A stretch of 64,000 nucleotides of DNA from Calditrichaceae bacterium (GTDB lineage Bacteria; Calditrichota; Calditrichia; Calditrichales; JBFXGD01), in assembly GCA_050173015.1 (NCBI GenBank), contig JBFXLE010000004.1, forward strand, positions 67,470 through 131,469. Reading direction: 5' to 3'. Every line of letters begins with the position of its first letter. The stretch's first letter is position 1. Positions 6,171-47,973 of this stretch are shown here, in pieces. The position numbers and the translations under genes are program-made. A model generated the notes under the pieces. It had not been told where the DNA came from and did no database searches. It saw only the letters and a program-made list of their open reading frames with translations.

Positions 6171-6179
6171 AGAAAATCG

Positions 6180-7187
6180 ATGATTAAAAATACTGTCTAT
6201 ATATGTCTTATAATTTGCTCTCTGGTCCTTAATGCTTTCGGCCAAACGAAAGTAGGGACAACGGCAGCTAATTTCTTAACCATACCTATCGGCGCCCGCG
6301 CTACAGGTATGGGGGGAGCCTTTGTCGCTATAGCGAATGACGCGACGAGCGCGTATTGGAATCCGGCGGGATTGACGCGTCTAAGCGGAAATCAAATAAA
6401 CGCGACGCATACACCATGGCTGGTAAATACGAATCTGAACTGGCTGAGTCTGGTGATGAAATTCGGGGAAAATGCATTGAGTGTCAGTATCAATCAACTC
6501 GACTATGGCAGTGAAGAAATTACAACCGCCGACGCGCCGATGGGTACCGGGCAGAAATGGGAGGCGATGGATTTGTCCTTCGGTATTTCATACGCCAGGG
6601 AACTGACCGACCGTTTTTCATTTGGAACGACTTTTAAAATTATTCAACAACAGATTTGGCACGAGACCGCTAATGCGATAGCCATGGATGTCGGTCTTAT
6701 GTACAATACGGAATTCAGGGGGTTGACCATCGGGATGAATATCTCAAACTTTGGATCGGAATTGCAAATGACCGGTAAAGATCTGCTGCAGCCTGTTGAT
6801 ATTGATCCGGGAAATAGCGGAAATAACGATAATATTGTGGCCAACATGGATACAGATTCCTGGCCTCTGCCATTGGCTTTTACGGTAGGGCTTGGTGTGG
6901 ATATTTTTCAGAACGAAAATTGGCGCGTTACGATGGCCAGCGACGCCACACATCCCAATAATCAGAAACTGCATATGAATCTTGGAACAGAGTTTTCCTG
7001 GCGTGAGATCCTTGCGTTGCGCGCGGGGTATAATTCCATGTTTAAGGAAGAAGCGCAGGAGGGATTCGCTTTTGGATTTGGTCTCAATTATCCTTTCGGT
7101 GATTTAATAGTTTCATTAGATTATAGTTATATGGAATTCGGAGTTTTTAATCCGATTTCACGTTATTCGTTAAATTTGCAATTTTAA
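6180..7187 (+). CDS. PorV/PorQ-family-like outer-membrane beta-barrel protein
   Basis: Signal peptide, then GTTAANFLTIPIGARATGMGGAFVAIANDATSAYWNPAGLTRL, which matches my memory of the PorV/PorQ (UPF0164-like) N-terminal signature. The C-terminal residue is aromatic (LNLQF). Confidence 0.65.
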   Translation: MIKNTVYICLIICSLVLNAFGQTKVGTTAANFLTIPIGARATGMGGAFVAIANDATSAYWNPAGLTRLSGNQINATHTPWLVNTNLNWLSLVMKFGENALSVSINQLDYGSEEITTADAPMGTGQKWEAMDLSFGISYARELTDRFSFGTTFKIIQQQIWHETANAIAMDVGLMYNTEFRGLTIGMNISNFGSELQMTGKDLLQPVDIDPGNSGNNDNIVANMDTDSWPLPLAFTVGLGVDIFQNENWRVTMASDATHPNNQKLHMNLGTEFSWREILALRAGYNSMFKEEAQEGFAFGFGLNYPFGDLIVSLDYSYMEFGVFNPISRYSLNLQF

Positions 7188-7244
7188 GAACTGATTTTGG
7201 GTGTTATCCTGATCTGAAAATGGCAACAATCACTCAAATGGAAA

Positions 7245-8897: not shown

Positions 8898-8949
8898 TAA
8901 AAATTGTATGGATCGGAATGGATCCTGACCAACGGTTGTAAATGTTCTC

Positions 8950-10764: not shown

Positions 10765-10773
10765 GAGATTTTA

Positions 10774-12822: not shown

Positions 12823-12838
12823 AAATTACTGAAACGAG

Positions 12839-32990: not shown

Positions 32991-33201
32991 AAAAGGAAAG
33001 TCATCTTGATTGGATTTTAGGTGTAATATTGATCCCTTAAATGATCGAAAATTCTTCCAAAATCGACTATTTTATATTAAAACTCGTCCGATTAGTCGAA
33101 TTTGATTAAACTCAGTTCAATAAAAACAATAACTTACGAGTTGGTACGACATTTGAAATAGAATATCTTGAAAACAGTCCAACAACCCAAAGGAGTAGGA
33201 A

Positions 33202-33654
33202 ATGAAATTATTAACGACATTTTTAGTCATCTTTTTTGCAGCCCTTTCATTATACGGTCAGGAAGTGCAGGTAAAGGAGAAAGTTAAGACGGAAGCCAAA
33301 GAAAAAGTACAGATCAAAGAGCAGGCAAAAACCGCCGAAAAAGAGCAAGTCCAGGTTAAGAACGAATTGAAAGAACAAGAACAGACTAAAAGCAAAGAAA
33401 TGATTCAGACCAAAACCAAAAAAGAAGAGCAGGTAAAAGAAAAAGTTCAGGAAAAAGCGGAAGAAAAGGCGCAGATCAAAACAAAAGAGCAAACAAAAGA
33501 ACAAACCGGATTTATTGATGAAGACGGCGACGGCATCAATGATAAGTCAAAAAAGGATGAAGGAAGTCAGTTTAAGGAAACCAACCGAAATCATTCCGGT
33601 GAAGGAACCACAAGCGAAGACGCGGCTAAACAGATTCAAAAAGGAAAGAAATAA
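33202..33654 (+). CDS. Secreted low-complexity Lys/Glu/Gln-rich protein with a DxDxDG motif
   Basis: Signal peptide, then degenerate KEKVQ/KEQ repeats, then FIDEDGDGINDK. The antisense F/L-rich ORF is a mirror artefact. Confidence 0.55.
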   Translation: MKLLTTFLVIFFAALSLYGQEVQVKEKVKTEAKEKVQIKEQAKTAEKEQVQVKNELKEQEQTKSKEMIQTKTKKEEQVKEKVQEKAEEKAQIKTKEQTKEQTGFIDEDGDGINDKSKKDEGSQFKETNRNHSGEGTTSEDAAKQIQKGKK

Positions 33655-33696
33655 TCATCACGGAAGTTCTAAATCAATAAAACTGAATATAATGAA

Positions 33697-33719
33697 GGAG
33701 CAGAGATGCTCCTTTTTTT
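33697..33719 (+). terminator. Rho-independent terminator
   Basis: GGAGCA-GAGA-TGCTCC followed by T7. Confidence 0.6.
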
Positions 33720-33916
33720 GTTTTAAATATCTTTATTGAGTCTTCCTGTTCACGCGCCTCAATGTGAATCCATTCTCAAAACTGCCAAATTTTTTCCCGT
33801 CATTCTCAAATTTAAGAGGAAAATCGGTTCATTTAACATCATACTCCCTGATCGTATCATATTTCACAAGGATATGTCATCTAAAATTGTTTTGGTACGA
33901 TTTTTGTAAATCTATA

Positions 33917-33954
33917 TTGAAAAATGTAGATATTTCTACAATTTAAACTATAGG
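33917..33954 (+). promoter_or_regulatory. Candidate promoter with embedded 6-4-6 palindrome (MerR-style operator)
   Basis: TTGAAA (33917-33922), then TGTAGA-TATT-TCTACA (33925-33940), then TTTAAACTATAGG. The palindrome sits between the putative -35 and -10, as in MerR-regulated promoters. Confidence 0.4.
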
Positions 33955-33956
33955 TT

Positions 33957-34418
33957 GTGAGGATGGAAGAGAAAAAAGGCCAAAAAAATGTACTGTATCC
34001 CATAGGGATGGTCGCCAAAATTTTTGATATTTCTGTGGCGACGCTCCGGCTGTATGAAGCGGAGGGATTAATCATTCCACGCAAAAGTAAGGGAGGACAT
34101 CGTCTGTTTACAGAGGTCGATCTTGACCGTATCCACTGTATCAGGGATATGATTGATGAAAAAGGCCTGAATCTGGCGGGAATCCGCATGATGTTGTCGG
34201 CAATTCCCTGTTGGGAGTTAAAACCATGCTCCCTTGAAGAGCGCCAGAGTTGCGACGCTTATTATGAATCCAATTCTCCCTGCTGGATGGTCGAAAATAA
34301 AGCTGAAATTTGTGCTAATGAGGACTGTAGTCAATGTCCCGTATATACGCAATCAAACAATTGTACCAATATAAAAATGATTTTAAAGAAATATTGGAGG
34401 GCGAAAGGTAATGGCTAA
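33957..34418 (+). CDS. MerR-family regulator with a C-terminal Cys-rich (two 'CW' motifs) domain
   Basis: HTH YPIGMVAKIFDISVATLRLYEAEGLIIPRKSKGGHRLF. C-terminus PCWELKPCSLEERQSCDAYYESNSPCWMVENKAEICANEDCSQCPVY holds 8 Cys. The start may be the ATG at 33963. The 3' end overlaps the psrA-like start by 8 nt. Confidence 0.75.
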   Translation: MRMEEKKGQKNVLYPIGMVAKIFDISVATLRLYEAEGLIIPRKSKGGHRLFTEVDLDRIHCIRDMIDEKGLNLAGIRMMLSAIPCWELKPCSLEERQSCDAYYESNSPCWMVENKAEICANEDCSQCPVYTQSNNCTNIKMILKKYWRAKGNG

Positions 34419-36621
34419 GAAATTCGACAGACGCGAATTTATCAAAATTATGGGTGTCGGTACCGGAGGGGTAATGGTCGGTTCATCCATGTTGCAAGCG
34501 CTGGATTTTGGTTCGCTTAATGCCGTCACGCAAGGGGCAATGGACAGAACCCCCACCTACTGCGAGATATGTTTCTGGAAATGCGCCGGATGGGTTTATA
34601 AAAAAGATGATAAACCATGGAAGATCGAAGGTAATCCGGATGATCCAAACAGCAACGGGCGGTTTTGTCCCCGTGGGACAGGCGGTATTGGCGCGTATAA
34701 CGATCCTGATCGTTTAAAAACACCGCTAATCAGGGTTGAAGAACGTGGAAAACAGGTTTTCCGTGAAGCCTCCTGGGAAGAAGCGTTCGACTATATCGCT
34801 GAAAAAATGATTGATATTAAAGAAAATCATGGTCCGGAATGCGTGGCTTTGTTTACGCATGGTTCCGGCGGTGATTATTTTAAAACACTATTGCGGGGAT
34901 ACGGTTCAAACAACATCGCAGCTCCGTCATACGCTCAGTGCCGCGGGCCGCGTGAAGAAGCTTACATGCTTACTTTTGGCGAGGCGGTCGGTTCTCCGGA
35001 AAGAACCGATATCGCTAACAGTAAATGCATCGTTCTGATCGGATCACATCTTGGTGAAAATATGCATAACGGTCAGGTACAGGAGTTCTCTGAAGCGGTG
35101 GCAAAAGGCGCGTCTGTTATCACGGTTGACCCCAGATTTTCGACGGCCGCCAGCAAATCAAAATATTGGCTTCCGATAAAACCCGGAACGGATATGGCCT
35201 TACTTCTTGCCTGGATACATGTCATTATAAATGAAGAATTGTATGATAAAAAGTATGTGGAAAAATATACCTATGGATTTGAACAATTAAAGGCAGCGGT
35301 TAAGGATAAAACCCCGGAGTGGGCATACACGAAAACAACAATTAAACCGAACGTCATCCGGGAAACGGCCAGGGAAATGGCTAAAAACGCGCCTGCTACA
35401 TTAGTGCATCCGGGACGCCATGTTACATGGTACGGCGATGATACTCAGCGTGTCAGGGCAGGAGCAATCCTCAATGCGCTGCTCGGCTCCTGGGGACGCA
35501 GGGGAGGGTTTTATGTTCCAGCGAAAGCTCATCTCGCCAAAGCCAAATTACCTCCGTTTCCGGCAACCAACAAGAGCTGGAAAGACGCGTTCCCCGGGAA
35601 ATTCCCGCTGGCGAGCCTGGCCCTATCTTCGGGAATCTGTGACGCCACGATCCCTTCTCCCCAGCATGATTGTTCATTCAAGGGGTGGATCGTATACGGA
35701 ACAAATCTGCCGCTGACACTTCCGGAACCGAAAAAAACATTGGAAGCGATTCAAAATCTTGAACTACTTGTGGCGATCGATATCATGCCCGCGGAGATCA
35801 CCGGTTGGGCCGATGTTGTGCTTCCTGAATGCACATATTTGGAACGTTACGATGACATAAGAATATCTCCGGGACGCGTTCCGACCATTGCTTTACGCGC
35901 GCCGGCATTCGAGCCTAAGTATAATACAAAACCGGCATACTGGATGGCCAGGGAACTGTCAAAACGATTGGGTCTTCAGCAATATTTTCCGGCTGAAACG
36001 ATGGAAAAACATATTGATCAGAGACTCAAGACAATCGGCAGCAGTCTGAAAGAAATGAAAAAGATTGGCGTTAAGCGGTTTGAAAACGAATATGACCTCT
36101 ATTTTCTTAATGGAGAAGATTATGAGTTCGGCACGCCAACCGGTAAGATCGAATTATACTCAACCACACTAAGCGACGCGGGATTTGATCCAATTCCACA
36201 ATATACCGCCCATGAGGAACCGCCTGCAAATTATTACCGCCTTCTTTACGGACGGGCACCAATGCATACTTTTGGAAGGACAGCAAATAATCCTAACCTG
36301 AATGATCTGATGGATGAGAATGAAGTCTGGATAAATCCTAAAGTCGCCAAAGAATGGGGAATCAAGAACAGGCAATATATTAAATTAGAGAACCAGGATG
36401 GTGTCATATCTAATAAAATTCGCGTAAAAGTGACTGAACGAATTCGTCATGATTCAGTCTATATGGTTCATGGATTCGGTCACACACAGAAACAAATGAC
36501 CCGTTCTTATCAGAAGGGTGCAAATGACACGGGACTGATTAGCAGGGTTAAAGTTGATCCGATTATGGGAGGCACGGGAATGCGTGTTAATTTTGTCACC
36601 TTTAAGAGGGAGGTAGCGTAA
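34411..36621 (+). CDS. Periplasmic Mo-bisPGD oxidoreductase catalytic subunit, PsrA/PhsA-like (polysulfide/thiosulfate-reductase clade; substrate unproven)
   Basis: Tat signal (DRREFIKIMGVG). N-terminal FS0 motif CEICFWKCAGW...x27...CPRG. Its size (736 aa) and its PsrB/PsrC-like partners fit the clade. Confidence 0.85.
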   Translation: MAKKFDRREFIKIMGVGTGGVMVGSSMLQALDFGSLNAVTQGAMDRTPTYCEICFWKCAGWVYKKDDKPWKIEGNPDDPNSNGRFCPRGTGGIGAYNDPDRLKTPLIRVEERGKQVFREASWEEAFDYIAEKMIDIKENHGPECVALFTHGSGGDYFKTLLRGYGSNNIAAPSYAQCRGPREEAYMLTFGEAVGSPERTDIANSKCIVLIGSHLGENMHNGQVQEFSEAVAKGASVITVDPRFSTAASKSKYWLPIKPGTDMALLLAWIHVIINEELYDKKYVEKYTYGFEQLKAAVKDKTPEWAYTKTTIKPNVIRETAREMAKNAPATLVHPGRHVTWYGDDTQRVRAGAILNALLGSWGRRGGFYVPAKAHLAKAKLPPFPATNKSWKDAFPGKFPLASLALSSGICDATIPSPQHDCSFKGWIVYGTNLPLTLPEPKKTLEAIQNLELLVAIDIMPAEITGWADVVLPECTYLERYDDIRISPGRVPTIALRAPAFEPKYNTKPAYWMARELSKRLGLQQYFPAETMEKHIDQRLKTIGSSLKEMKKIGVKRFENEYDLYFLNGEDYEFGTPTGKIELYSTTLSDAGFDPIPQYTAHEEPPANYYRLLYGRAPMHTFGRTANNPNLNDLMDENEVWINPKVAKEWGIKNRQYIKLENQDGVISNKIRVKVTERIRHDSVYMVHGFGHTQKQMTRSYQKGANDTGLISRVKVDPIMGGTGMRVNFVTFKREVA

Positions 36622-37158
36622 ATGTCTCGATATGCAATGGCTATAGATACAAAACGATGTGTGGGTTGCGCCGATTGCGTTGTTGCCTGCCAGACGGAAA
36701 ATAATGTTCCGATAGGATACTGTAAAGACTGGATTGTTGAGGAAATGACCGGTGTCTATCCGGAATTACAGCTTGAAATCCGCTCAGAACGATGCAATCA
36801 CTGTGAAGACGCGCCCTGTGTGCGTTCCTGCCCGACCAGCGCCAGTCATTATGAAGAAGGTGGCATTGTTCTGGTGACTCATGAGGAATGTATCGGTTGT
36901 AAGGCGTGTATTGCTTCCTGCCCTTACGATGCAAGATTTGTTCATCCTGAAGGCTATGTGGATAAGTGTACATTTTGTATTCACAGAGTTAAAGACGGAA
37001 AAGATCCGGCATGTGTCAGCGTCTGTCCGACACACGCGATGATTTTTGGAGATCTGGATGATCCGAATAGTGAGATCTCAAAAACAATCCGTACGAGAAA
37101 AAATAAGACACTCATCCCGGAAGCAGGTACAAAACCTCATGTTTATTATCTGCTGTAA
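36622..37158 (+). CDS. 4x[4Fe-4S] ferredoxin subunit (PsrB/NrfC-like)
   Basis: Four Cys clusters: CVGCADCVVAC, CNHCEDAPCVRSC, CIGCKACIASC and CTFC...CVSVCP. Confidence 0.9.
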   Translation: MSRYAMAIDTKRCVGCADCVVACQTENNVPIGYCKDWIVEEMTGVYPELQLEIRSERCNHCEDAPCVRSCPTSASHYEEGGIVLVTHEECIGCKACIASCPYDARFVHPEGYVDKCTFCIHRVKDGKDPACVSVCPTHAMIFGDLDDPNSEISKTIRTRKNKTLIPEAGTKPHVYYLL

Positions 37159-37208
37159 AATATGAACCGGTTTTTAGGATTTGTAAATAAAATTTCTGGA
37201 GAATCAAA

Positions 37209-38162
37209 ATGAAAGAAATAACCATCACATCAGGGAGAATGAATCCGGGTATTGATCCGGTGCTTCATGCATGGGGTTGGGAAATCCCTGTTTACCTGTT
37301 TCTTGGAGGGCTTGTTGCCGGTATTCTGTTCTTCTCAACTCTATATTATATCCGCGGCCGACAGAATGACTACCCGACAGCGGTGAAAATCGCGCCGTTA
37401 TTTGTCCCCGTGTTTTTATCAATCGGATTGCTGGCGTTGTTTCTCGATTTGTCGCATAAACTCTATTTTTGGCGACTGTACACGACAGTCCGGTGGGAGT
37501 CACCGATGTCCTGGGGCGCGTGGACGCTTCTTTTAATCTTTCCGCTCTCCATACTCTGGATCGCAACATGGATCGAGGATGTATTTCCTAAATGGAACTG
37601 GAAATATAAAATATTAAAAATCAGCGCGGATTTACTAAAAAATTACCGCAAACTTCTGGCCTGGTCGGTTATGATCCTCGCGCTTATTCTCGGTATGTAC
37701 ACAGGTATTCTGCTTTCCGCCTTTAATGCGCGTCCATTCTGGAACACATCGATACTCGGGCCCTTATTTCTGGTTTCCGGTTTATCCACAGGAACGGCGT
37801 TCATCATTTTGCTGTCAAAATCTCATGAAGAGAAGAAAAGGTTCAGTCAGATTGATTTAACCCTGATTGGTGCGGAGCTGTTCTTAATCGTTCATATGTT
37901 TATGGGATTTCTGGCCAGCACCGAGGTCCATATTCAGGCCGCGGAACTTTTCCTCGGCGGACCGTACACCGCTGTATTCTGGACATTTATCGTCGGATTA
38001 GGGCTGGTGATTCCGCTTATTGTAGAGCTTCTGGAACTTCGCGGCGTGAAGATTCCTTTGCAAATTCCGGCATTGCTTGTGCTTATGGGCGGATTTATTC
38101 TGAGATTCATTGTTGTTGACGCCGGGCAGACTTCGAGATGGCTGTATAAGTTTTTGGAGTAG
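37209..38162 (+). CDS. NrfD/PsrC-family integral-membrane quinol-interacting subunit
   Basis: Eight TM segments with an NrfD-like N-terminus (WGWEIPVYLFLGGLVAG). Confidence 0.85.
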   Translation: MKEITITSGRMNPGIDPVLHAWGWEIPVYLFLGGLVAGILFFSTLYYIRGRQNDYPTAVKIAPLFVPVFLSIGLLALFLDLSHKLYFWRLYTTVRWESPMSWGAWTLLLIFPLSILWIATWIEDVFPKWNWKYKILKISADLLKNYRKLLAWSVMILALILGMYTGILLSAFNARPFWNTSILGPLFLVSGLSTGTAFIILLSKSHEEKKRFSQIDLTLIGAELFLIVHMFMGFLASTEVHIQAAELFLGGPYTAVFWTFIVGLGLVIPLIVELLELRGVKIPLQIPALLVLMGGFILRFIVVDAGQTSRWLYKFLE

Positions 38163-38248
38163 GGAGGAAGAAGAAGTAGGAAGTAAGAAGTAGGAAGTAG
38201 GAAGGTTAAGAAAAAAGAAAAAAGAAAAAAGAAAAAAGATTAAGAACG

Positions 38249-38341
38249 GTCTGAACCTGGATTAAAATGATTAAATGATTTGGATGATTAAGAAATTGGA
38301 AATCAGAGTTGTCATTTAATCAGTCGAATCAGAGTTCAGAC
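38249..38341 (+). other. 93-nt imperfect hairpin module, copy 1
   Basis: GTCTGAAC...GTTCAGAC closing stem; GATT/AATC; inner 10-bp stem GATTAAATGA/TCATTTAATC. Confidence 0.6.
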
Positions 38342-38420
38342 AAAGAAGTAAGAAGTAGGAAGTTGGAAGTGGGAAGTGGGAAGGTTAAGAAAAAAGAAAA
38401 AAGAAAAAAGATTAAGAACG

Positions 38421-38513
38421 GTCTGAACCGGGATTAAAATGATTAAATGATTTGGATGATTAAGAAATTGGAAATCAGAGTTGTCATTTAATCAGTCGAA
38501 TCAGAGTTCAGAC
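38421..38513 (+). other. 93-nt imperfect hairpin module, copy 2
   Basis: Same arms as copy 1, with a single substitution (CCGGG versus CCTGG) in the internal loop. Confidence 0.6.
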
Positions 38514-38592
38514 AAAGAAGTAAGAAGTAGGAAGTAAGAAGTAGGAAGTGGGAAGGTTAAGAAAAAAGAAAAATGAAAAAAGATTAAGAACG

Positions 38593-38685
38593 GTCTGAAC
38601 CGGGATTAAAATGATTAAATGATTTGGATGATTAAGAAATTGGAAATCAGAGTTGTCATTTAATCAGTCGAATCAGAGTTCAGAC
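38593..38685 (+). other. 93-nt imperfect hairpin module, copy 3
   Basis: Identical to copy 2 by eye. Confidence 0.6.
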
Positions 38686-38810
38686 AAAGAAGTAAGAAGT
38701 AGGAAGGTTTAAAAAAAATATTGGGTGAGGAAGTCCGTGCCCAAAGAAAAAAGTGGATCTTAAAATAAATATAAAGAATAATTCCGGGTTTTAACGAGAG
38801 GAATCAAAAG

Positions 38811-39314
38811 ATGAAAGAACAAAAGTATTGGTCACCCTATTTATCAGGAATTGGCCTGGGGATTACACTCTTGCTGGCTTTTGTGATTATGGGGCGGGGA
38901 CTTGGCGCTTCCGGTGCCATGATGAGGTTTGAAGTCTGGTTTCTAAACCTGTTCGCAGCCGATCATGTGGCGGCAAATCCTTATTTTAGCAAATATGCAA
39001 ATAATCCTTTGTCAAACTGGCTGATTTTTGAAGTAATTGGTGTCATTATCGGCGGATTTTTATCAGGGGCTCTCGCGGGACGCCTGAAATTTAAAATCGG
39101 CAAAGGTCCGAATATTTCAAACAAAGGGCGTTTAGCTCTTGCTTTTGGTGGAGGCGCCTTAATGGGATTCGCCGCGCGTTTGGCGCGAGGATGTACCAGT
39201 GGTCTTGCGCTTACCGGTGGGGCGACGCTCGCTCTTGGAGGCTGGGTTTTTATGCTGATGATCTTCGCGGGTGGATACATGACCGCATATTTCGTCCGGA
39301 GACAGTGGTTATAA
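38811..39314 (+). CDS. YeeE/YedE-family sulfur-compound transporter, half-size subunit 1
   Basis: GRGLGASGA and ARLARGCTSGLALTGG motifs (DUF395 'sulphur transport' signature). Confidence 0.8.
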   Translation: MKEQKYWSPYLSGIGLGITLLLAFVIMGRGLGASGAMMRFEVWFLNLFAADHVAANPYFSKYANNPLSNWLIFEVIGVIIGGFLSGALAGRLKFKIGKGPNISNKGRLALAFGGGALMGFAARLARGCTSGLALTGGATLALGGWVFMLMIFAGGYMTAYFVRRQWL

Positions 39315-39375
39315 ATCAATGATCGTCAAAGGGAATATGATCTGATAAGAATTTTAGATCTTCTCGGAAATTTAA

Positions 39376-39981
39376 ATGATGGAGAAAACTATGGCACCCT
39401 TTTTTAAAATGGGATTTTTTGGAGAGCAGACAAGTTTTATAATCGCTCTGATCCTTGGTATCAGTTTTGGTTTCTGGCTGGAAAGAGCCGGTTTTGGCGA
39501 CAGCCGTAAATTAGCCCTTCAATTTTATTTTGAAGATATGACGGTCCTGAAAGTCATGTTTACGGCCATACTGGTGGCGATGGTAGGAATGATGTATATG
39601 ACCTTGTTTGGCTATCTCGATATTGAAAAAGTATATATCAATCCGACATATATCTGGGCTCAGACAATCGGCGGACTCGTTTTGGGAGTCGGTTTCGCGA
39701 TCGGCGGATATTGCCCGGGTACCTCAGTTGTGGGCGCGGCGACTGGAAGAATTGACGGTTTTGTGTATATTTTGGGAGCTCTGTTCGGGATGTTCGTGTT
39801 TGGGGAGATGTTCCCGTTCATCGAAGAGTTCTATTATGCCGGTTTCATGGGTAACGCGAAGCTGACCGACTTTTTTGGTCTTTCCACCGGTGTGGTGGGA
39901 CTTCTCGTTATTCTGATGGCCGTGGGTATGTTTTACGGCGGTGAATGGTTGGAGAGAAAGTTCAGGAAGGAGACTGTATAA
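39376..39981 (+). CDS. YeeE/YedE-family sulfur-compound transporter, half-size subunit 2
   Basis: GFAIGGYCPGTSVVGAATG motif; 4-5 TM segments. Its stop overlaps the next ATG (TAATG). Confidence 0.8.
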   Translation: MMEKTMAPFFKMGFFGEQTSFIIALILGISFGFWLERAGFGDSRKLALQFYFEDMTVLKVMFTAILVAMVGMMYMTLFGYLDIEKVYINPTYIWAQTIGGLVLGVGFAIGGYCPGTSVVGAATGRIDGFVYILGALFGMFVFGEMFPFIEEFYYAGFMGNAKLTDFFGLSTGVVGLLVILMAVGMFYGGEWLERKFRKETV

Positions 39982-40607
39982 TGACATTTTCAAGCAAAAC
40001 TCTCGGTTTTGGTTTGTTGGTTTTATTGGGTCTGATTCTGGCATTCTCACCCGTGGATAAGATGAGCCGGAAGCCGGTTACAGCCGAACAACTGATCAAA
40101 GAAATCACGACAAAAAAAGATTTTGTTCAGCCGGAAGACCTGGCGCACTGGATTATTGATAAAGATCCGGGTTTTCAGGTGATTGATGTCCGGTCAAAGG
40201 ATGACTATGCAAAATATCATATTCCCGGAAGTGTCAGCATTCCGCTTGAGAAATTGGTCGATTCAGAGAGCAGGGACTATATCTATGCGAATAAAATGTT
40301 GATTCTTACTTCAAACGGAAACACAAATGCATCCCAGGCCTGGATTTTTATGAAGCAATTGGGATATAAGGAAGTTTATATTCTTTCGGGCGGAATGAAT
40401 TACTGGGTAGATGTTTTTAGCAATCCTAATCCTCCGGAAGGTAGCTACACGGACGATGAACTCTTCACTTACCAGTTCCGAAAAGCGGCTGGGCCGGTGA
40501 TGATGGGAACGGCGGTCGCTACTTCATCCGAAGTAACAATTGAAGCGCCGGCTCCTGTAAAAAGAGCAATCAGGATGCCAAAGAAAAAGCGTGATGAGGG
40601 ATGTTAA
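39981..40607 (+). CDS. Exported rhodanese-homology-domain protein lacking the catalytic Cys
   Basis: I chose the ATG at 39981 (MTFSSKTLGFGLLVLLGLILA signal/anchor) over the track's 39945. Rhodanese fold FQVIDVRSKDDYAKYHIPGSVSIP...LILTSNGNTNASQAW...GYKEVYILSGGMNYW. Ser occupies the active-site Cys position. Confidence 0.75.
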   Translation: MTFSSKTLGFGLLVLLGLILAFSPVDKMSRKPVTAEQLIKEITTKKDFVQPEDLAHWIIDKDPGFQVIDVRSKDDYAKYHIPGSVSIPLEKLVDSESRDYIYANKMLILTSNGNTNASQAWIFMKQLGYKEVYILSGGMNYWVDVFSNPNPPEGSYTDDELFTYQFRKAAGPVMMGTAVATSSEVTIEAPAPVKRAIRMPKKKRDEGC

Positions 40608-40615
40608 GATTACCT

Positions 40616-40651
40616 GAAGCAGGGCAGATAATTTCTGCTCTGCTTTTTTTT
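40616..40651 (+). terminator. Rho-independent terminator at the convergence point
   Basis: GAAGCAGGGCAGA-TAAT-TTCTGCTCTGCTT (one G:T pair) followed by T8. It abuts the stop of the minus-strand cytochrome gene. Confidence 0.7.
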
Positions 40652-42290
40652 ATTTGTTGAATAGTTCTTCTATGCCGTCGTTTTTAAATGCCCTTGTCCG
40701 CCACTTTTTGTAATCCGCCGATTTTTCCAACAATCTTCGTTGTTCCTGACTGTTTAATAAACGGCTTCCCGGTATAACAGGTTCGGTCGGCAGAGTTATT
40801 GAATTTGAAACGGAGTTCGAAAAAGCATTGCGAATTCCCAATCCGGCGGCTTTGGTATTACCGTGACAGCTTTCACAGACGCGCCCACTCTTCCCGGTTG
40901 TGTGGGGTGTGTACGCATCCCATGACCAACCGGGGCGCCCGTCAGATCTTTTCGGGATGACCGAATCAAGCCATAAATTTTCACTGGAATCCACATACGT
41001 TATAAAATACTGATGTAGCGGTCGGATAATTGAGTATTTTCCATTGGAATTTACTCCCAGCACGGGATCTTCCCATCGTCTGAACGACCAGCCTTTATAC
41101 CAGATTCCGGTTGATTCCACACCTGTTAAACGATTGGGCGAATGAGCGGTTGGCCGTACTGTCGGATCAATCAGAAACATATCGGTCAATAAATTGATAA
41201 CGGATTTATCTCCCTGCCAAATCAAATTTTCCCATATTTCATAATGTTTGGTTTCATCCAGAAAAAGATGAAGACCGTAATCCTGGTATGACCATTGCGC
41301 GTGACACGAACCGCAGGTTAAATCCGCGTGAAAATCCATATGTGATATGATGTCTTTATTAAATTTTATTACATCTTTTTTATTTGGAGCTTGTTTAAAT
41401 CCGCCGTGGCAATTTTCGCACCTGATATCCGAAGGCTGCTCTCCAAATTTTCTATTTCGGAAATCACCCATGACACTCTGTGAAGTGTGACAGTCAAGAC
41501 ATGTCATACCCGCATTCTGATGCACATCGGTAGCGAGACGGTGCTGATAGGCGCCGAAGAAGGGTTGGCTTCCGTAAGGCGTCGCGTATTCCTGATGATA
41601 GTCATGTTCAAAATAACCATAATAGTCACCACCGATATGATTATTTGAATGACAAGTCAGACAGGTTTTATCCACAACTTTTTTCTGCATTTTATGACCA
41701 TGCAGGGGCTCACCATTTTTCTGATCGAAGGGAATATGACAAGATGCGCATCCGCCGGCTCTTATTTTACCAGGCTGCTCATCCTTCCCTGAAGCGTTAA
41801 AGTGACAGGAAAGACATTTTTTTGCCAGCAGATTGTCCACGAGCTCCGGAGGGGTCGTACCTGTGGCGCGTCCTGTTCTGCCCAGCAGTTTCCATTGATC
41901 GGGATCAGGATTCGTAACAAGCGTTTTGTCTTTTCCCCAAAGATATCTGGTCTGTGAGATCATTCCCCCGGCAGAGTAGTGAAGGCTGTTTTTAAATTGA
42001 GTGATTTCTTTTTGATGACAGCTGAGACATTTTTCACGCCACCATTTTTCTAATGAAGGATTTTGTATCACACGCGAATGACCTGCCTGATCGGGTTGAA
42101 AATCAGCGTTTGGTGAGGAATGACAGTCCGCGCAGGTAATATTGCAGCTGGATTCAATACCCTTATGACAATCAACGCAGTTCTCGCCCGCGTATCCGGC
42201 GGACACGACCATGAGCAATAAAACCTGAAGGCTTATTTGTCGGATTAACCTCACAGAATAACAACTCTTAATCATCAATTTTTTCTGCAT
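40650..42290 (-). CDS. Decahaem c-type cytochrome (periplasmic)
   Basis: Signal peptide and 10 CxxCH motifs (CVDCH, CADCH, CLSCH x2, CASCH, CLTCH, CLDCH, CENCH, CGSCH, CESCH). Overlaps the upstream gene by 16 nt. Confidence 0.9.
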   Translation of the reverse strand: MQKKLMIKSCYSVRLIRQISLQVLLLMVVSAGYAGENCVDCHKGIESSCNITCADCHSSPNADFQPDQAGHSRVIQNPSLEKWWREKCLSCHQKEITQFKNSLHYSAGGMISQTRYLWGKDKTLVTNPDPDQWKLLGRTGRATGTTPPELVDNLLAKKCLSCHFNASGKDEQPGKIRAGGCASCHIPFDQKNGEPLHGHKMQKKVVDKTCLTCHSNNHIGGDYYGYFEHDYHQEYATPYGSQPFFGAYQHRLATDVHQNAGMTCLDCHTSQSVMGDFRNRKFGEQPSDIRCENCHGGFKQAPNKKDVIKFNKDIISHMDFHADLTCGSCHAQWSYQDYGLHLFLDETKHYEIWENLIWQGDKSVINLLTDMFLIDPTVRPTAHSPNRLTGVESTGIWYKGWSFRRWEDPVLGVNSNGKYSIIRPLHQYFITYVDSSENLWLDSVIPKRSDGRPGWSWDAYTPHTTGKSGRVCESCHGNTKAAGLGIRNAFSNSVSNSITLPTEPVIPGSRLLNSQEQRRLLEKSADYKKWRTRAFKNDGIEELFNK

Positions 42291-44071
42291 GGCAGGTGGC
42301 TCTCATTCCGGTACCTTTCGATACTTTGTTCAAAATTTCTATAAATGGCGTCATTATAGGTATCATGACAGGTGATACAAAGACTAACCCTGTAAATGTT
42401 TTTGATCTCTTTCATGTCAAACGGGCGGGCGGTGAGTCTTGACATGCGTTGGGTCAGCCTGCCCTGACCATCGGTCATCATCTCAAGGCTAGTTTTCCCA
42501 AGGCCGGCCGTTTGCGTATCGTACAGTTGCTGTGTTTCGAAACCATTTTCTCGCGGTTTCAGAAATCCTTCTCCCATTCCTAGACGCTTGATATTACTGT
42601 GGCAATCTATACATTCCGGCACTGATTTTCTTGTAGAATGCGGATCAAACGGGGCCATGGTCAGCCAGGTTTTTTGCTGTCTGATCTGCAAAGAGTCATT
42701 CAGTTCGGTTAAATACACCTGGCATCCGGGAGCGAAGGGCATAACCCGATCCAGATTGTCCACACCGAGTGTGGGTTTTTCATAGCGCAGGTATGAGCGT
42801 CCCTCACGCCAGTGGCCGAATGTTTCCTCATTGCTGACTTTGTCAAGCTGTTTTTTGGTGGGATCGTAAATATCATGACAACCGTAACACTGCGGCGTAT
42901 AAGCGGAGTGACAGGACTGACATCCCATCCTATCATGTCCCTGAAAATTACAGGCTTCATTATTTTTGTTTTGCGGAATTTCCAGCTCTTTACCGTCAAG
43001 TTTTCTGGTCAGCACGGGCTTTCCCGACCGCATTTCTACATTGGCGTAAAATGAACCGCGGGTTGTTCTTGCCAACAGGGAATCATCCGGCATCATAAGA
43101 TTTTGGTTGACAGATATAATTTTCCATACAATATTATCCGCGGGAGGACGTTCAAATTCCGCGTCATGACAGTCTTCACATTTGATATGCACCTGCTGTT
43201 CAAGGTGCTCGTATCTTTTGCCGTCTCCCATGATATCTTCCGCGACATGGCAGTCGATACAGGTCATTCCCGCGTCAAAATGGACATCCGCTGTTATATG
43301 ATAGTAAAATCTGCCGCCTGAGAGTTCCATTTGGGAAGTATTTCCGCCCTCATAGGGTGTGCCGTATCCTTCTGATTCAAATTTTCCCTGATAGGTCAGC
43401 GCTGTTCTGTTGGAGCGGTTATGGCATTTTTCACAGGTCGGGATATCGATTTCCACACTCAGCGTTGGATGTATTTTCAAATTCTCGTTTTTCACCAGGT
43501 GACAATCGTTGCATCCGCCACCGCGTTCTCCGATTTCTCCGGGGAAATCATTTTCGCGTTTATTGATATGACAACTCGCGCAAAGCTTTCGGAGATGCGA
43601 GGTCGCCAGCGAAGTGTCCGGAATGTTCTGATCTATATGAAGCGTGGAATCATCGGGAGTTGATTTTTCATACCATTGATAGAGAGTTGACGCAACCAGT
43701 CCTGAATTTGAAGTCATTATGGAATTTTTAACGGAATGCGCCAGATCGGAATGGCATTCGCTTTTACCGCAGGTTTGGTCAACCCAGTGTAGATCGGATG
43801 GATTCCTGACCATGCCGTAGTGCGCGTTTCTTTCATCGGCTGCATCCGGATTTCCGAGATGACAGGTGTAACATCCAAAGATTTTATTTGGGTGTGAAGA
43901 ACTCATATCCTTCTCATCAGCATGACAGGAAATACAGCGGTCAGGCCGATTAAGGGCGTTTATGTTATCATTCGTGCCGTTATTCTGTATGGTTAAAATG
44001 ATAACCAGAAGAAGAATCAAAATTGAAAGAATTAAATATGTCCGGGGTTTCATCTGTTTAAAAATTGCCAT
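42275..44071 (-). CDS. Multihaem c-type cytochrome: 11 CxxCH plus 1 CxxxxCH, with an N-terminal membrane anchor
   Basis: CISCH, CYTCH, CASCH, CNDCH, CEKCH, CIDCH x2, CEDCH, CQSCH, CYGCH, CITCH, plus CGKSECH. Shares the block DVHxxAGMTC(I/L)DCH with the decahaem paralogue. Confidence 0.9.
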   Translation of the reverse strand: MAIFKQMKPRTYLILSILILLLVIILTIQNNGTNDNINALNRPDRCISCHADEKDMSSSHPNKIFGCYTCHLGNPDAADERNAHYGMVRNPSDLHWVDQTCGKSECHSDLAHSVKNSIMTSNSGLVASTLYQWYEKSTPDDSTLHIDQNIPDTSLATSHLRKLCASCHINKRENDFPGEIGERGGGCNDCHLVKNENLKIHPTLSVEIDIPTCEKCHNRSNRTALTYQGKFESEGYGTPYEGGNTSQMELSGGRFYYHITADVHFDAGMTCIDCHVAEDIMGDGKRYEHLEQQVHIKCEDCHDAEFERPPADNIVWKIISVNQNLMMPDDSLLARTTRGSFYANVEMRSGKPVLTRKLDGKELEIPQNKNNEACNFQGHDRMGCQSCHSAYTPQCYGCHDIYDPTKKQLDKVSNEETFGHWREGRSYLRYEKPTLGVDNLDRVMPFAPGCQVYLTELNDSLQIRQQKTWLTMAPFDPHSTRKSVPECIDCHSNIKRLGMGEGFLKPRENGFETQQLYDTQTAGLGKTSLEMMTDGQGRLTQRMSRLTARPFDMKEIKNIYRVSLCITCHDTYNDAIYRNFEQSIERYRNESHLPCRKN

Positions 44072-44961
44072 CCATCCCCTCGAAAATATGTACCAATGAT
44101 GCTTTCAATCATATAAATAATAATCATAAGGAGTATAAAATACAGCACGGACTTTTCAAATTTCTTTACTACCGGTAACAGAAAGAAGGCGATGAGTATC
44201 AGCGAGGGGAAAACAACACCAGCGATCGAAACCGGCAGCCAGGCAAGAAGTTCCTGCAATCCGATGAAGTACCAGGGTCCTTTTACAACTTCAATAACCG
44301 CGTCCGGTCTGAATCCCAGTTTTGCGGGAAACAAAATTGCAAAAAGTGAGATCAATATGATTGTATATGCAAACGCGTACCGCTCCGATTTTAATCTGTG
44401 AATATGAATATAGGTAAGAATCACGGATAAGATTGAAAAAGTGGCCGCGTGATGCGTATAGATTACCGCCAGCGGTGTTGTTGAACGTTCCGACTGCAGG
44501 AGAAAGTTTGACAGAGTATTCCCAAGCGCGGGAAGCGTTTGCAGGATTCCGTCAAAGATATGCACCGCGGAAAAACTTTCCTTGCTGCCGATACTTAAAA
44601 ATCCGCTGAAGACGGTAAGAATGGAGATTACGAACAGAATGATAAGCAATCCCCATGATTTCATGGTATAGCTTTGATAAGTTTTTTTTAAAAGATATTC
44701 AATGATATGGATGACTGTTGAAATTAGAAATATATCACCCGCGTAAGAATGGAAACCGTGTAAAAAAGCACCCATATAGCCGGCGCTGATGAATTGACTG
44801 ACACTCCGGAATGGATCGTCGCCGGAAATATAGAAGGGTATGAGCATTAATCCTGAAATCAGGGCTAATACAAGGCTGCTGAGTGAAATTTCCCCCCAGC
44901 CCGGCATCCACAATGTTTTTTCAAAAAAGACTGATCGGTTCAAGATTTTATCCATTTTCAA
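44050..44961 (-). CDS. Cytochrome b of a Rieske/cyt b complex
   Basis: FHSYAGDIFLISTVIH gives H-x13-H and HAATFSILSVILTYIH gives H-x14-H, the bis-His haem ligand spacing of helices B and D. A Qo-loop-like GPWYF sits where PEWYF occurs in canonical cyt b. Confidence 0.75.
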   Translation of the reverse strand: MKMDKILNRSVFFEKTLWMPGWGEISLSSLVLALISGLMLIPFYISGDDPFRSVSQFISAGYMGAFLHGFHSYAGDIFLISTVIHIIEYLLKKTYQSYTMKSWGLLIILFVISILTVFSGFLSIGSKESFSAVHIFDGILQTLPALGNTLSNFLLQSERSTTPLAVIYTHHAATFSILSVILTYIHIHRLKSERYAFAYTIILISLFAILFPAKLGFRPDAVIEVVKGPWYFIGLQELLAWLPVSIAGVVFPSLILIAFFLLPVVKKFEKSVLYFILLMIIIYMIESIIGTYFRGDGWQFLNR

Positions 44962-44967
44962 AAAAGA

Positions 44968-45363
44968 TCAAATAATTATCTCAATATCATTCGTTTCGTT
45001 GAGTTTATAATCCAGATCGGTCAGATTTTTTTTTGCCGGTCCGGATAAATAATTCCCTTCATTGTCAAATTTGCTGCCGTGACAGGGGCAGATGAACATT
45101 TTGCTGTTTTCGTTAAAATTTACGGTGCATCCCAAATGAGTACATTTTTTTGAAATGATGCGCAATTTTTGATGGTCAGTTCTGACAAAGAAAAATTCGG
45201 TTTCCTTCAGGTCTTTCAATTTTAATTTTAGAACATGTTTCTTTTGGGAAATACGATTTAAAAAACCGGAAAATGGAAAATACAAAAGACCTGCAGCCAG
45301 AAATAAAATTCTCCGGCCTAATGTATGTAAAAATGTGCGGCGTTTGTAAGTGTTTTCCGACAT
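44968..45363 (-). CDS. Rieske [2Fe-2S] protein
   Basis: CTHLGC...CPCHGS cluster-binding boxes. N-terminal RRTFL Tat-like motif plus a TM anchor. Confidence 0.85.
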   Translation of the reverse strand: MSENTYKRRTFLHTLGRRILFLAAGLLYFPFSGFLNRISQKKHVLKLKLKDLKETEFFFVRTDHQKLRIISKKCTHLGCTVNFNENSKMFICPCHGSKFDNEGNYLSGPAKKNLTDLDYKLNETNDIEIII

Positions 45364-45403
45364 ATCAATTATTTTTTTGTGAGACTATTTTATATGATAA
45401 GGG

Positions 45404-46543
45404 TTAGATCCCCGATGAGTCATTCTTCTCCCGGACAGTTGTTTCGACTGTTAAAACCTGGATGAAGAGCTGTGTCATAAAACTGTCCAATCTCCTGATT
45501 CCCTTATTATCTCCGGATACGATCCAGCTTTGCCGGATAATTTGTTTAAATAAGGGGAACAATCCAATTATAGATTCAATTTCCGGCGAATAGTGTATTT
45601 TTTTTCTGCTCAAATATGACCTGAGTTTGTTGATCACTATCGGTCCTAATATAAAGTACCAGATAGTCATTATAAGAACGGATCTCGCTACCATTAATAA
45701 AGCTGCTGTTCCTTGGTTTTTCTCAAATACGGGAAAAATATAGGACAAAATCAGGATCGATGATATAATCACGAGTAGCATTATATTGGAAAATTTATGC
45801 CAGGGACGTTTTCTTTTCTTTTTTTTCGGAGGATTATCCGCTTTATCAGAATCCACAGTCAGATTCAACGATACCGGATTGTTTTTTAATTCGTTTTTTA
45901 TTTTAACGCTAAGGATAGGCGCCCAAACACCTGCCGATACACCGGCCGCAACGTGAATGCCTACATATAGAATGATAAATAAGGCGCTGATGCTGAGTGG
46001 CAGGGAATCCGTTCCTGAAAGAAAAAGTTGACCAAGAATATATTCTGTAAACAAGTCAATCGAATTCCACAGATTATTACCGAAAACAACGGTCAAAATG
46101 ATGATTTTCTGAATTCCCGATTGAAACAAGGCCAGAGCTCCGAGGATGGGAGCGGCTATACCGGGGTATTTTATCCATCGGAATATAAATTCACCGAACA
46201 AACCCTGCAAACCCACGGCGATATACGCGGTAATCGGTGTGTGTGGACTGACAAGACCTTTCACAATTAAAACCAATAGAGTGGCGCGGAGAATGGTGTT
46301 TTTTTTATCCGAAAAACAAGCGATAAGCGTCATAAATATCACAGCGCTGCTGCCGATTATCAATCCGGTGAACGGGATTTTAAATGCATGCAGAATGCCT
46401 CCGAGTCCTGCTTCGCTTAAGGCCCAAAGCGCTGTAATTCGGTCGATAGCTCTCGTACGGGAAAAGTAATACCCGGCCGGAGAATCATTGGTAATCATTG
46501 TATTTTTGATGGGATTATTCATTTTTCTTGCTTCAGGTATCAC
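45404..46543 (-). CDS. Polytopic membrane protein of unknown function
   Basis: About 9-10 TM segments interrupted by a basic loop (PPKKKKRKRPWHK). A 4-nt overlap joins it to mobA. No family recognised. Confidence 0.6.
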   Translation of the reverse strand: MIPEARKMNNPIKNTMITNDSPAGYYFSRTRAIDRITALWALSEAGLGGILHAFKIPFTGLIIGSSAVIFMTLIACFSDKKNTILRATLLVLIVKGLVSPHTPITAYIAVGLQGLFGEFIFRWIKYPGIAAPILGALALFQSGIQKIIILTVVFGNNLWNSIDLFTEYILGQLFLSGTDSLPLSISALFIILYVGIHVAAGVSAGVWAPILSVKIKNELKNNPVSLNLTVDSDKADNPPKKKKRKRPWHKFSNIMLLVIISSILILSYIFPVFEKNQGTAALLMVARSVLIMTIWYFILGPIVINKLRSYLSRKKIHYSPEIESIIGLFPLFKQIIRQSWIVSGDNKGIRRLDSFMTQLFIQVLTVETTVREKNDSSGI

Positions 46544-47175
46544 TCTGTCTGATCAGGAAACTCATCTGTCTGCATCAATCTTGCCAGGTCTTCCCGGGTA
46601 TTGACATTATAAAAGTATTCGGGTTTATACCCCGGCATATTATTGGGGATATCGACCTGAACGGCGTTTAAGCGTGAAAGAAGTTTGTGCAGACTGTAAT
46701 TTCCCTCACGGATTGACTGTTCGACGATCCTTAATGCGTTGGCCGGCCAGATAGAGACCAAGGGCTCGATACCCTTATCGGACTTTGCGACAACTGCTTG
46801 ATCGGCCGATCGGGAGTTCATCATATAATGATACACTTTTGCCGAAAGGCGGGGCATATCACATGGCAGAACGGCAATCCATTGGTCCGGGAAACAGGCC
46901 AGCGCCGTATAGATACCGCCAATAGGCCCCCGGTCGGTAACTTTGTCCCGCACAGACCTGATGTGATCAAAATATTTGATCTCTTCCGGGCCTGAAACGA
47001 TAACGATATTGTCCGCGATACCTTCAGCCAGCCCGGCGGCCCAGTCTATAAGTCGCTTATTTTTATAGACAGCTGTGACCTTCGAAGTACCAAATCTGGC
47101 GCTTTTTCCACCGGCAATGATCGCCGCGGAAAGTGCATTTATATTTTCCAAACATTTCTCATAGTAAATGATCAT
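46540..47175 (-). CDS. mobA: Molybdenum cofactor guanylyltransferase MobA
   Basis: LSAAIIAGGKSARFGTSK...LPCDMP pattern of MobA/NTP_transf_3. Confidence 0.8.
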   Translation of the reverse strand: MIIYYEKCLENINALSAAIIAGGKSARFGTSKVTAVYKNKRLIDWAAGLAEGIADNIVIVSGPEEIKYFDHIRSVRDKVTDRGPIGGIYTALACFPDQWIAVLPCDMPRLSAKVYHYMMNSRSADQAVVAKSDKGIEPLVSIWPANALRIVEQSIREGNYSLHKLLSRLNAVQVDIPNNMPGYKPEYFYNVNTREDLARLMQTDEFPDQTE

Positions 47176-47263
47176 GTAAAACTATAAAGGTAATCAAAAT
47201 ATGAACTTAAACAAGTAAAAAGTTTGGGTTCAATTGAAGTTTGGCTGGAAAGAAAGAGATAAA

Positions 47264-47300
47264 GTAAAGAAAAAAGCCTTTCCCGGTGAAGGGAAAGGCT
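47264..47300 (-). terminator. Rho-independent terminator after the TPR lipoprotein gene
   Basis: On the minus strand, AGCCTTTCCC-TTCACC-GGGAAAGGCT (10-bp stem) followed by TTTTTTCTTT. Confidence 0.7.
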
Positions 47301-47318
47301 TTAAACCTGACGGTTTTG

Positions 47319-47948
47319 TTAAATGACGCCGCGTAATCTCATAATTTCTTCATGCAATGCCTGTTGTCCGTCGGAAGTACTGACATCCGCATTAAAACTG
47401 GCATTTAATTTCTGAACTTCAGTCAGGCTGCCATCGAAATCACCGAGCCAGAAATAATCCTGGGCCATACACAATTGTAAATCCTTGTAATCCAGATCGA
47501 TTCCGATGGACGGAGAATTATAGGTGAATGACCAGTTAGCCTCATTGCTGATTGCCATTGAGGCGTGCACAATAGAATTGTCATATAAACCGAGAACGAG
47601 TTCGGCAAAAGCCATACCTGCATACAGATCATTGCTTGAAATGTTCAGGTCATCTGCGGAGTCAAAATAATCGTATGCCGTCGCGATTTCTCCCAATTTG
47701 GAATAACTCCAGGCAAGACCGAGATGGGCTGCAAATTCATTCGGGTTGTCAGAAAGGGCGGTATCAAAATATCCAATGGCTTCCTGATAATTTCCCGCCT
47801 TAAACGCATTCCAGCCACTAACGCTCGCGTCAGATATTGTCGTGCCATCGTCCTTATTGCTCGTAGAATCTGAACTGCAGCCGACAAATGCAATAGAAAA
47901 TATTAATATCAGCCACAAATTATATAACAGAAGTTTTTTGATTTTCAT
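47319..47948 (-). CDS. TPR-like lipoprotein
   Basis: Lipobox IAFVGCSS. Helical repeats with TPR-like A/Y/G spacing (AFKAGNYQEAIGYFDTAL..., AHLGLAWSYSKLGE...). Confidence 0.65.
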   Translation of the reverse strand: MKIKKLLLYNLWLILIFSIAFVGCSSDSTSNKDDGTTISDASVSGWNAFKAGNYQEAIGYFDTALSDNPNEFAAHLGLAWSYSKLGEIATAYDYFDSADDLNISSNDLYAGMAFAELVLGLYDNSIVHASMAISNEANWSFTYNSPSIGIDLDYKDLQLCMAQDYFWLGDFDGSLTEVQKLNASFNADVSTSDGQQALHEEIMRLRGVI

Positions 47949-47973
47949 AATAAAGCTCCTTATCCAATCTGTT

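Follow-up and report, generated by a model that had tools for sequence, protein, structure and literature searches.

In a 64,000-nt stretch of the genome of a Calditrichaceae bacterium (assembly GCA_050173015.1, contig JBFXLE010000004.1, positions 67,470 to 131,469; hereafter the window), the genes of a Rieske [2Fe-2S] protein and a cytochrome b are followed by those of two large multihaem cytochromes of 598 and 546 residues; the question raised by this locus is which complex the four genes specify and where its electrons go. An earlier account of the same DNA, made from the letters alone (the sequence-only reading), had taken the 10 + 12 haem arrangement to be distinct from those known. The gene products are best read, with a probability of about 0.6, as an ExtMNOPQ-type Rieske/cytochrome b complex of the GPWY clade, which would act as a menaquinol:multihaem-cytochrome oxidoreductase, likeliest for periplasmic sulfur or selenium electron transfer; its electron partner and direction of flow are putative. 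Judged by sequence, the design is one already known from Geobacter since 2010 and widespread, and the Calditrichaceae locus is an ordinary member.

Motif counting gave 11 CxxCH plus CGKSECH at residue 101 in the 598-residue protein and 10 CxxCH in the 546-residue protein; no CxxCK was found in either. The proteins are paralogues (BLASTP: 27% identity, 519 columns, E 1e-39), ADVHFDAGMTCIDCH and TDVHQNAGMTCLDCH being common to both, and CGKSECH of the longer is aligned to CLSCH of the shorter. The longer protein has a single N-terminal hydrophobic helix (residues 11-29), the shorter a signal-peptide-like N-terminus. Overlapping genes for an anchored and a decahaem cytochrome, paralogous and with shared motifs, had been described in just these terms by the sequence-only reading; the open reading frames (ORFs) agree. 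Its claim of a distinct arrangement has to be given up: the nearest NCBIfam models are those of the Ext proteins, and the Geobacter ext operon has the same set (PMC5877670, PMC2825233). Through the Ext models the cytochromes match a family already tied to Rieske/cytochrome b, annotated rather than biochemically characterised. NCBIfam ExtM (NF040943) matched the 598-residue protein with 311 bits, E 1.2e-92 (residues 41-579 against model positions 17-586 of 599).

Geobacter data: the ext operon encodes 12-haem ExtM (68 kDa), 10-haem ExtN, Rieske protein ExtO, cytochrome b ExtP and membrane protein ExtQ (PMC5877670); in Geobacter sulfurreducens ExtMNOPQ corresponds to GSU2935-2932 and GSU3620 (the 'bc complex' cluster; Butler et al. 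2010, Jahan et al. 2018). Attention was first drawn to the cluster in 2010, as a bc complex whose multiple cytochromes were unusual and which was kept in six Geobacter genomes (PMC2825233). The link to Geobacter is drawn from the NCBIfam models and these papers; Geobacter was not among the 80 loci compared below. Shared by the two systems are 12-haem and 10-haem cytochromes with a Rieske protein, a b6-like cytochrome b and a subunit-IV-like part, the 12 haem motifs within ca. 600 residues, and a rhodanese gene and a polysulfide reductase gene in the neighbourhood. They differ as follows: ExtP and ExtQ are one polypeptide in the window (ExtP model over residues 19-193, ExtQ over 193-301); the gene order is Rieske-cytochrome b-M-N, in Geobacter M-N-O-P-Q; the 10-haem protein is ca. 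130 residues longer (546 vs ca. 415 in ExtN) at equal haem count; no ExtI, ExtJ, ExtKL (MccSep) or ExtS genes lie within the 64-kb window; and the nearby polysulfide reductase is a molybdoenzyme, Psr, whereas that of Geobacter, MccSep, is a haem and selenocysteine enzyme. The adjacent 220-residue single-domain rhodanese gave no match to the ExtH model; its counterpart in Sulfurospirillum is ExtH-like (62 bits). It was also observed that NCBIfam NF040968 ('FeS_ExtO', 416 positions) matches the multihaem cytochromes, at the region and score of the ExtN model, and not the Rieske protein; the model thus seems to describe a cytochrome.

The strongest evidence in the analysis for the 12-haem protein as the c-type subunit is of the Rosetta-stone kind. 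In 33 of 145 representatives at 50% identity a GPW[YF] cytochrome b and a 12-haem cytochrome are naturally joined in one polypeptide of ca. 900 residues, cytochrome b in front; the cytochrome b domain of one fusion is 27% identical to that of the window over 285 residues. The Rieske gene lies directly upstream in all three fused loci examined (among loci L084-L088), and rhodanese and Porin_O_P (ExtI-like) genes accompany two of them, one with a 106-residue ExtJ-sized gene in addition. The fusions argue that cytochrome b and the dodecahaem cytochrome would sit in one complex, the N-terminal helix of the cytochrome coming after the last cytochrome b helix, and the proposal that multihaem cytochromes are the c-type partners of this Rieske/cytochrome b operon is supported. 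The fusions, and a cross-phylum link to rhodanese, PsrABC, YeeE and ExtI-like porin genes, are new here.

The Rieske boxes CTHLGC (C74, H76, C79) and CPCHGS (C92, C94, H95) are intact, disulfide cysteines included, and the N-terminus carries a KRRTFL motif resembling that for twin-arginine translocation (Tat) and an anchor. The second box, CPCHGSKF, is of the Ser/Phe type; Ser plus Phe/Tyr was found in 38/38 collected Rieske proteins of the clade. Closest solved chains: anammox Kuste4569 (9rk4) and Kustd1480 (9rk3); measured potentials of the closest solved proteins: +303 and +335 mV; for Rieske proteins of the GPWY clade a mid-plus to high potential is predicted (PMC4122944). Cytochrome b combines a b6-like part of four helices with a subunit-IV-like part in one chain, with seven helices and two haems in all; the alignment puts His71/His85 (x13) and His171/His186 (x14) at the haem-ligand positions of solved cytochromes b, and all four are invariant in 43 homologues. 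It has no cysteine at all and thus no haem ci. The Qo motif GPWYF (residues 228-232) is aligned to PEWY of solved cytochromes b, the acidic residue being gone; the 43 homologues have GPW[YF] (40) or SPWF (3). Intact boxes, intact spacings and a Qo motif devoid of Glu had all been claimed before; ORF reading, the Pfam Rieske match and these alignments confirm the three.

Cytochromes b with the motif GPWY/GPWF make up a named clade, whose Rieske partners are of Ser-Phe or Ser-Tyr type and which is recorded in delta-proteobacteria, Ignavibacteria and Nitrospinae (PMC4122944, Kao and Hunte 2014). The window pair resembles it in the GPWY Qo motif and the Ser/Phe Rieske partner, membership being judged by motif. 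That paper places one of two Caldithrix abyssi cytochromes b in the clade (PMC4122944); 12 + 10 haem partners are not mentioned in it, and in its Ignavibacterium example the fusion partner is a trihaem c7 domain. As a side observation, the C. abyssi genome paper gives a single Rieske/cytochrome b pair, in the nap locus (PMC5317091), yet a metagenome-assembled genome (MAG) labelled C. abyssi (L003) has a second, GPWY-type operon beside psr.

The Qo motif also bears on the direction of flow. In a reverse run the multihaem cytochromes would collect electrons from periplasmic oxidation of sulfide, polysulfide or thiosulfate and pass them to the Rieske protein, and a reverse Q cycle driven by the proton-motive force would reduce menaquinone. 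Motifs with Pro at position 2 (APWY, PPWY) are tied to complexes proposed to run backwards, GPWY has that Pro, and GPWY Rieske proteins group with the APWY ones (PMC4122944). The precedents, however, are APWY and PPWY complexes, GPWY complexes never having been characterised; sulfide and polysulfide are already more reducing than menaquinone, which makes an uphill route needless; and no dedicated oxidising enzyme (Sox, TsdA) is encoded nearby. Reverse operation is regarded as improbable.

Haem motifs in the two cytochrome families were conserved throughout: all 12, CGKxxCH included, at 100% in 79 homologues of the 12-haem protein, and all 10 at 100% in 52 homologues of the 10-haem protein; in these alignments the conservation is far above chance. 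The CxxxxCH site is invariant across the 12-haem family, i.e., no oddity of the window gene, and the CGKCH found at this site in one homologue supports haem binding there. Outside the haem motifs, Cys450 (100%) and Cys595 (99%) are conserved in the same 79 homologues; they could form a disulfide, or provide His/Cys haem ligands as in sulfur-converting cytochromes. Conserved beta-rich domains are present in both proteins (12-haem protein: ca. residues 394-474; 10-haem protein: Trp-rich, ca. residues 334-444). AlphaFold2 (AF2) models had a predicted local distance difference test (pLDDT) score of 66.8 for the 598-residue protein, its N-terminal half being poor, and 77.5 for the 546-residue protein, with a predicted template-modelling (pTM) score of 0.80. 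Foldseek with both models against the PDB returned nothing at E <0.5; the models lack haems, so this null result is weak negative evidence. The PDB sequence search gave only marginal NrfA and NrfB matches for both cytochromes.

These features raise the alternative that one or both of the cytochromes are enzymes in their own right, reducing a small periplasmic substrate (polysulfide, selenite, sulfite or nitrite) at an open-site or His/Cys-ligated haem, with the bc core as a dedicated quinol dehydrogenase. Conserved distal-ligand candidates are fewer than the haems in both proteins (12-haem protein: 6 His and 2 Met; 10-haem protein: 8 His, no Met), although counts taken from alignments are crude and ligands can come from variable positions or from a partner subunit. 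The conserved Cys450 and Cys595, the beta-rich domains devoid of a structural match in the PDB and the weak NrfA and NrfB matches speak for it as well, as does the classing of ExtN as potentially catalytic, with a pentacoordinate haem, in a cable-bacteria study (PMC11976967); set against these, CxxCK or another known catalytic signature is absent and the haem-free models show no active site. The alternative is judged unlikely. Two further candidate assignments were rejected: a NapC/NrfH-type quinol dehydrogenase for the 598-residue protein, the weak matches lying mid-protein and not at the anchor; and secretion through the type IX secretion system (T9SS) or an outer-membrane location, no C-terminal sorting domain being present.

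Spread of the system: Calditrichaceae MAGs supply the closest proteins, at 97-100% identity. At E <1e-5 the 12-haem family numbers 2521 members in the 90% clusters, with 222 representatives at 50% identity (E <=1e-30); at least 315 species genomes, of Calditrichota, WOR-3, Desulfobacterota and Campylobacterota, encode a relative of the 12-haem protein. Loci were compared for the best 80 of 315. In 17/17 Calditrichota and 7/8 Campylobacterota loci the 12-haem gene has a Rieske gene upstream of it, cytochrome b is directly adjacent by a strict distance rule in 12/17 and 7/8, and the 10-haem gene is directly downstream in 14/15 and 6/6, respectively; Rieske/cytochrome b genes adjoin the multihaem genes in just 8 of 37 Desulfobacterota loci and in none of the four WOR-3 loci. 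Many Desulfobacterota loci (L035, L042, L054 and L068 among them) show the 12-haem and 10-haem genes as a two-gene unit without adjacent Rieske/cytochrome b, and the four WOR-3 loci (L023, L025, L026, L031) the 12-haem gene alone.

The periplasmic sulfur assignment comes from what lies beside the operon. The convergent neighbour is predicted to encode a PsrABC-type polysulfide reductase, its substrate likewise predicted: PsrA matched Thermus polysulfide reductase 2VPW over the full length (E 9.9e-215, 718 bits), has the Tat motif DRREFIK and would bind molybdenum-bis(pyranopterin guanine dinucleotide); PsrB matched Fer4_11 (four-cluster ferredoxin); PsrC is an NrfD anchor. The operon further has two half-size YeeE/YedE sulfur transporters and a membrane- or periplasm-targeted rhodanese. 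PsrA, PsrB and PsrC together with a periplasmic rhodanese are found likewise in Thermus thermophilus and Wolinella (PsrABC with Sud-type rhodanese); unlike there, the window psr genes are paired with two half-size YeeE genes, a MerR regulator and an adjacent bc operon. Across Calditrichota the PsrABC-YeeE-rhodanese operon adjoins the bc operon in both convergent and co-directional orders. In Sulfurospirillum (Campylobacterota; loci from MAGs) one cluster is co-directional: rhodanese (ExtH-like), PsrC, PsrA, PsrB, small gene, Rieske, cytochrome b, 12-haem, 10-haem. In Geobacter extM comes directly after ExtKL, identified in a 2025 preprint as MccSep, a polysulfide reductase of the periplasm that S0 respiration cannot do without; the bc genes are not discussed in that preprint. 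In the window mobA, whose product the Psr cofactor requires, is apparently transcribed together with the bc genes. Linkage to rhodanese, PsrABC, YeeE, ExtI-like porin and MccSep makes a role in periplasmic chalcogen respiration the likeliest. The module thus exists far beyond Geobacter, and in several phyla its companions are rhodanese, Psr, YeeE and porin genes. The value lies less in the Calditrichaceae locus than in two family-level patterns, the fusions and the rhodanese/polysulfide-reductase linkage; the fusions and the cross-phylum sulfur-gene link turn a 'bc complex' of vague role into a concrete, testable hypothesis. In one Calditrichaceae genome (L016, 11694-17418) the 10-haem gene is followed at once, and in the same direction, by another, divergent Psr-like set: PsrA (43% identity), PsrB, a different 282-residue membrane subunit, two YeeE and a rhodanese.

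The porin of the Geobacter ext cluster would also suit an inner-membrane entry point of extracellular electron transfer (EET) to insoluble Fe(III)/Mn(IV) minerals or partner cells. In the window the Pfam scan of ORFs of at least 120 residues detected no MtrB-like or ExtI-like barrel, as had been stated before for the MtrB type, and no porin, outer-membrane cytochrome or further cytochrome gene is found in the 64 kb; the 598- and 546-residue proteins are its two c-type cytochromes. The outer-membrane-type proteins present (TonB-dependent receptor, PorV-like, CsgG-like) are all far from the bc operon, and the genes conserved in the neighbourhood concern sulfur, not EET. Such an extracellular route is very improbable here.

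With an ExtMNOPQ-type menaquinol:multihaem-cytochrome oxidoreductase as the preferred reading, electron flow may be set out as follows. Menaquinol would be oxidised at a Qo site that has Pro in place of the usual Glu/Asp; one electron would pass to the Rieske cluster, of Ser/Phe type and predicted high potential, and from there to the anchored 12-haem subunit, which would stand in for cytochrome c1 or f; the soluble 10-haem protein would accept it as periplasmic outlet or terminal enzyme; the second electron would be recycled by the b haems in Q-cycle fashion. The scheme bears on the route of quinol electrons to periplasmic sulfur and selenium reductases, and on what pays for the uphill step from menaquinol to polysulfide.

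Several points weigh against this reading. The scores stay far below the equivalog cut-offs: 311 vs 800 bits for ExtM, which makes the 598-residue protein a homologue and not an equivalog; 104 vs 200 bits for ExtN (NF040967) with the 546-residue protein, which scores higher with ExtM (153 bits) and is thus no simple ExtN orthologue; 68 vs 290 bits for ExtP (NF040969) and 25 vs 150 bits for ExtQ (NF040970) with cytochrome b, both still the best-scoring families. In 29/37 Desulfobacterota and 4/4 WOR-3 loci the multihaem genes are without adjacent Rieske/cytochrome b, so the cytochromes can work with other partners. Synteny with sulfur genes is correlation only, and PsrABC has its own quinol-oxidising PsrC, without need of a bc complex. 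The literature searched contained no biochemical or genetic test of ExtMNOPQ in any organism. The polysulfide potential is ca. -260 mV. A Rieske centre near +250 to +330 mV would therefore leave no downhill electrons for polysulfide, and a simple forward route to Psr is energetically implausible.

This mismatch would be resolved by a serial chain, in which PsrABC would act as sulfide/polysulfide:menaquinone oxidoreductase or as an ordinary reductase, and the bc complex would re-oxidise menaquinol and send electrons through 22 haems to a higher-potential acceptor system encoded elsewhere (nitrate/nitrite reductases, Fe(III), selenite, tetrathionate). Synteny in differing gene orders fits such a chain, and so does the Geobacter ext cluster, implicated in selenite/tellurite reduction and up-regulated with Fe(III) (PMC5877670); yet reverse operation of Psr is unproven at the locus, and the 64-kb window encodes no terminal reductase for a high-potential acceptor. 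It is held to be decidedly unlikely. A wider proposal, put forward tentatively and itself unlikely, makes the ExtM-type complex a dedicated quinol-linked module of periplasmic polysulfide/chalcogen respiration in at least four phyla, its terminal enzyme being exchangeable (Calditrichota and Campylobacterota: molybdenum Psr; Geobacter: MccSep); either the large gap between menaquinol and the unusually high-potential Rieske centre would be used in a bifurcation-like manner, pushing low-potential electrons to polysulfide, or the module would have its own His/Cys-ligated catalytic haem.

Among other Rieske/cytochrome b complexes, a similar plan is found in those of anammox bacteria, Kuste4569-4574 and Kustd1480-1485: b6-like cytochrome b with subunit IV, hexa-/octahaem c subunits replacing cytochrome f, menaquinol as substrate, and Rieske proteins with a Ser/Phe or Ser/Tyr pair as in the window. 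Unlike them, the window complex is without an NAD(P) oxidoreductase subunit, an octahaem protein resembling hydroxylamine oxidoreductase (HAO) and the N-terminal His for the extra b haem proposed in anammox; the multihaem subunits belong to a family other than theirs. With b6f and Firmicute menaquinol:cytochrome c reductases it shares the x13/x14 His spacing, the Rieske disulfide and the split or fused b6 and subunit IV; it differs in having no haem ci Cys, in the Qo motif (GPWY vs PEWY/PDWY), and in a c-type subunit that is an N-terminally anchored 12-haem protein, joined by a 10-haem protein.

The coordinates of the locus are collected in Table 1.

Table 1. Features of the bc operon and its surroundings; positions are those of the window.
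Feature	Position	Strand	Basis or remark
Convergent neighbour operon: MerR, PsrA, PsrB, PsrC, 2 × YeeE/YedE, rhodanese	33957..40607	+	Pfam, NCBIfam
Hairpin, 13-bp stem	40616..40646	.	in 42-nt gap between convergent rhodanese and decahaem genes
ExtN-like secreted decahaem cytochrome, 546 aa	40650..42290	-	NCBIfam ExtM 153 bits, ExtN 104 bits; BLASTP to paralogue
ExtM-like membrane-anchored dodecahaem cytochrome, 598 aa	42275..44071	-	NCBIfam ExtM 311 bits; haem motifs
Cytochrome b, 303 aa	44050..44961	-	Pfam Cytochrome_B; NCBIfam ExtP and ExtQ
Rieske [2Fe-2S] subunit, 131 aa	44968..45363	-	Pfam Rieske E 1.5e-12
Polytopic membrane protein, 379 aa	45404..46543	-	40 nt upstream of Rieske gene
MobA, molybdenum cofactor guanylyltransferase	46540..47175	-	NCBIfam MobA E 2.8e-34
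Terminator-like hairpin	47273-47302		just upstream of mobA

Gene overlaps were 22 nt (cytochrome b / 12-haem), 16 nt (12-haem / 10-haem) and 4 nt (mobA / 379-residue membrane protein). The hairpins at either end of this gene series, 47273-47302 and 40616-40646, suggest a single transcription unit of mobA, the 379-residue membrane protein, Rieske, cytochrome b, 12-haem and 10-haem genes; mobA is probably its first gene, the membrane protein gene is probably co-transcribed with the Rieske gene, and the hairpin in the 42-nt gap is probably the terminator of both convergent units. The 379-residue protein had no Pfam or NCBIfam match, even at E 5, and was found in the closest Calditrichaceae relatives alone (present in L001, L002 and L004, absent from L003). 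No RNA family was detected by Rfam in 33000-48000.

Within the psr operon, a purine-rich tandem repeat (38171-38706; unit 172 nt, 3.1 copies, 95% identity, no Rfam match) fills the psrC-yeeE gap and explains the spike in guanine-cytosine (GC) skew at 38-40 kb; the core of the repeat unit is present once in the 97%-identical L001 and L002, so that copy number varies between strains. Near the start of the window (49-15499) lies an unrelated polysaccharide-utilisation-like block: TonB-dependent receptor, large T9SS-tailed protein, PorV-like protein, sodium:solute symporter, two GH66 enzymes (one of them T9SS-tailed) and another glycosidase; the T9SS tails are consistent with an origin in the Fibrobacterota-Chlorobiota-Bacteroidota (FCB) group.

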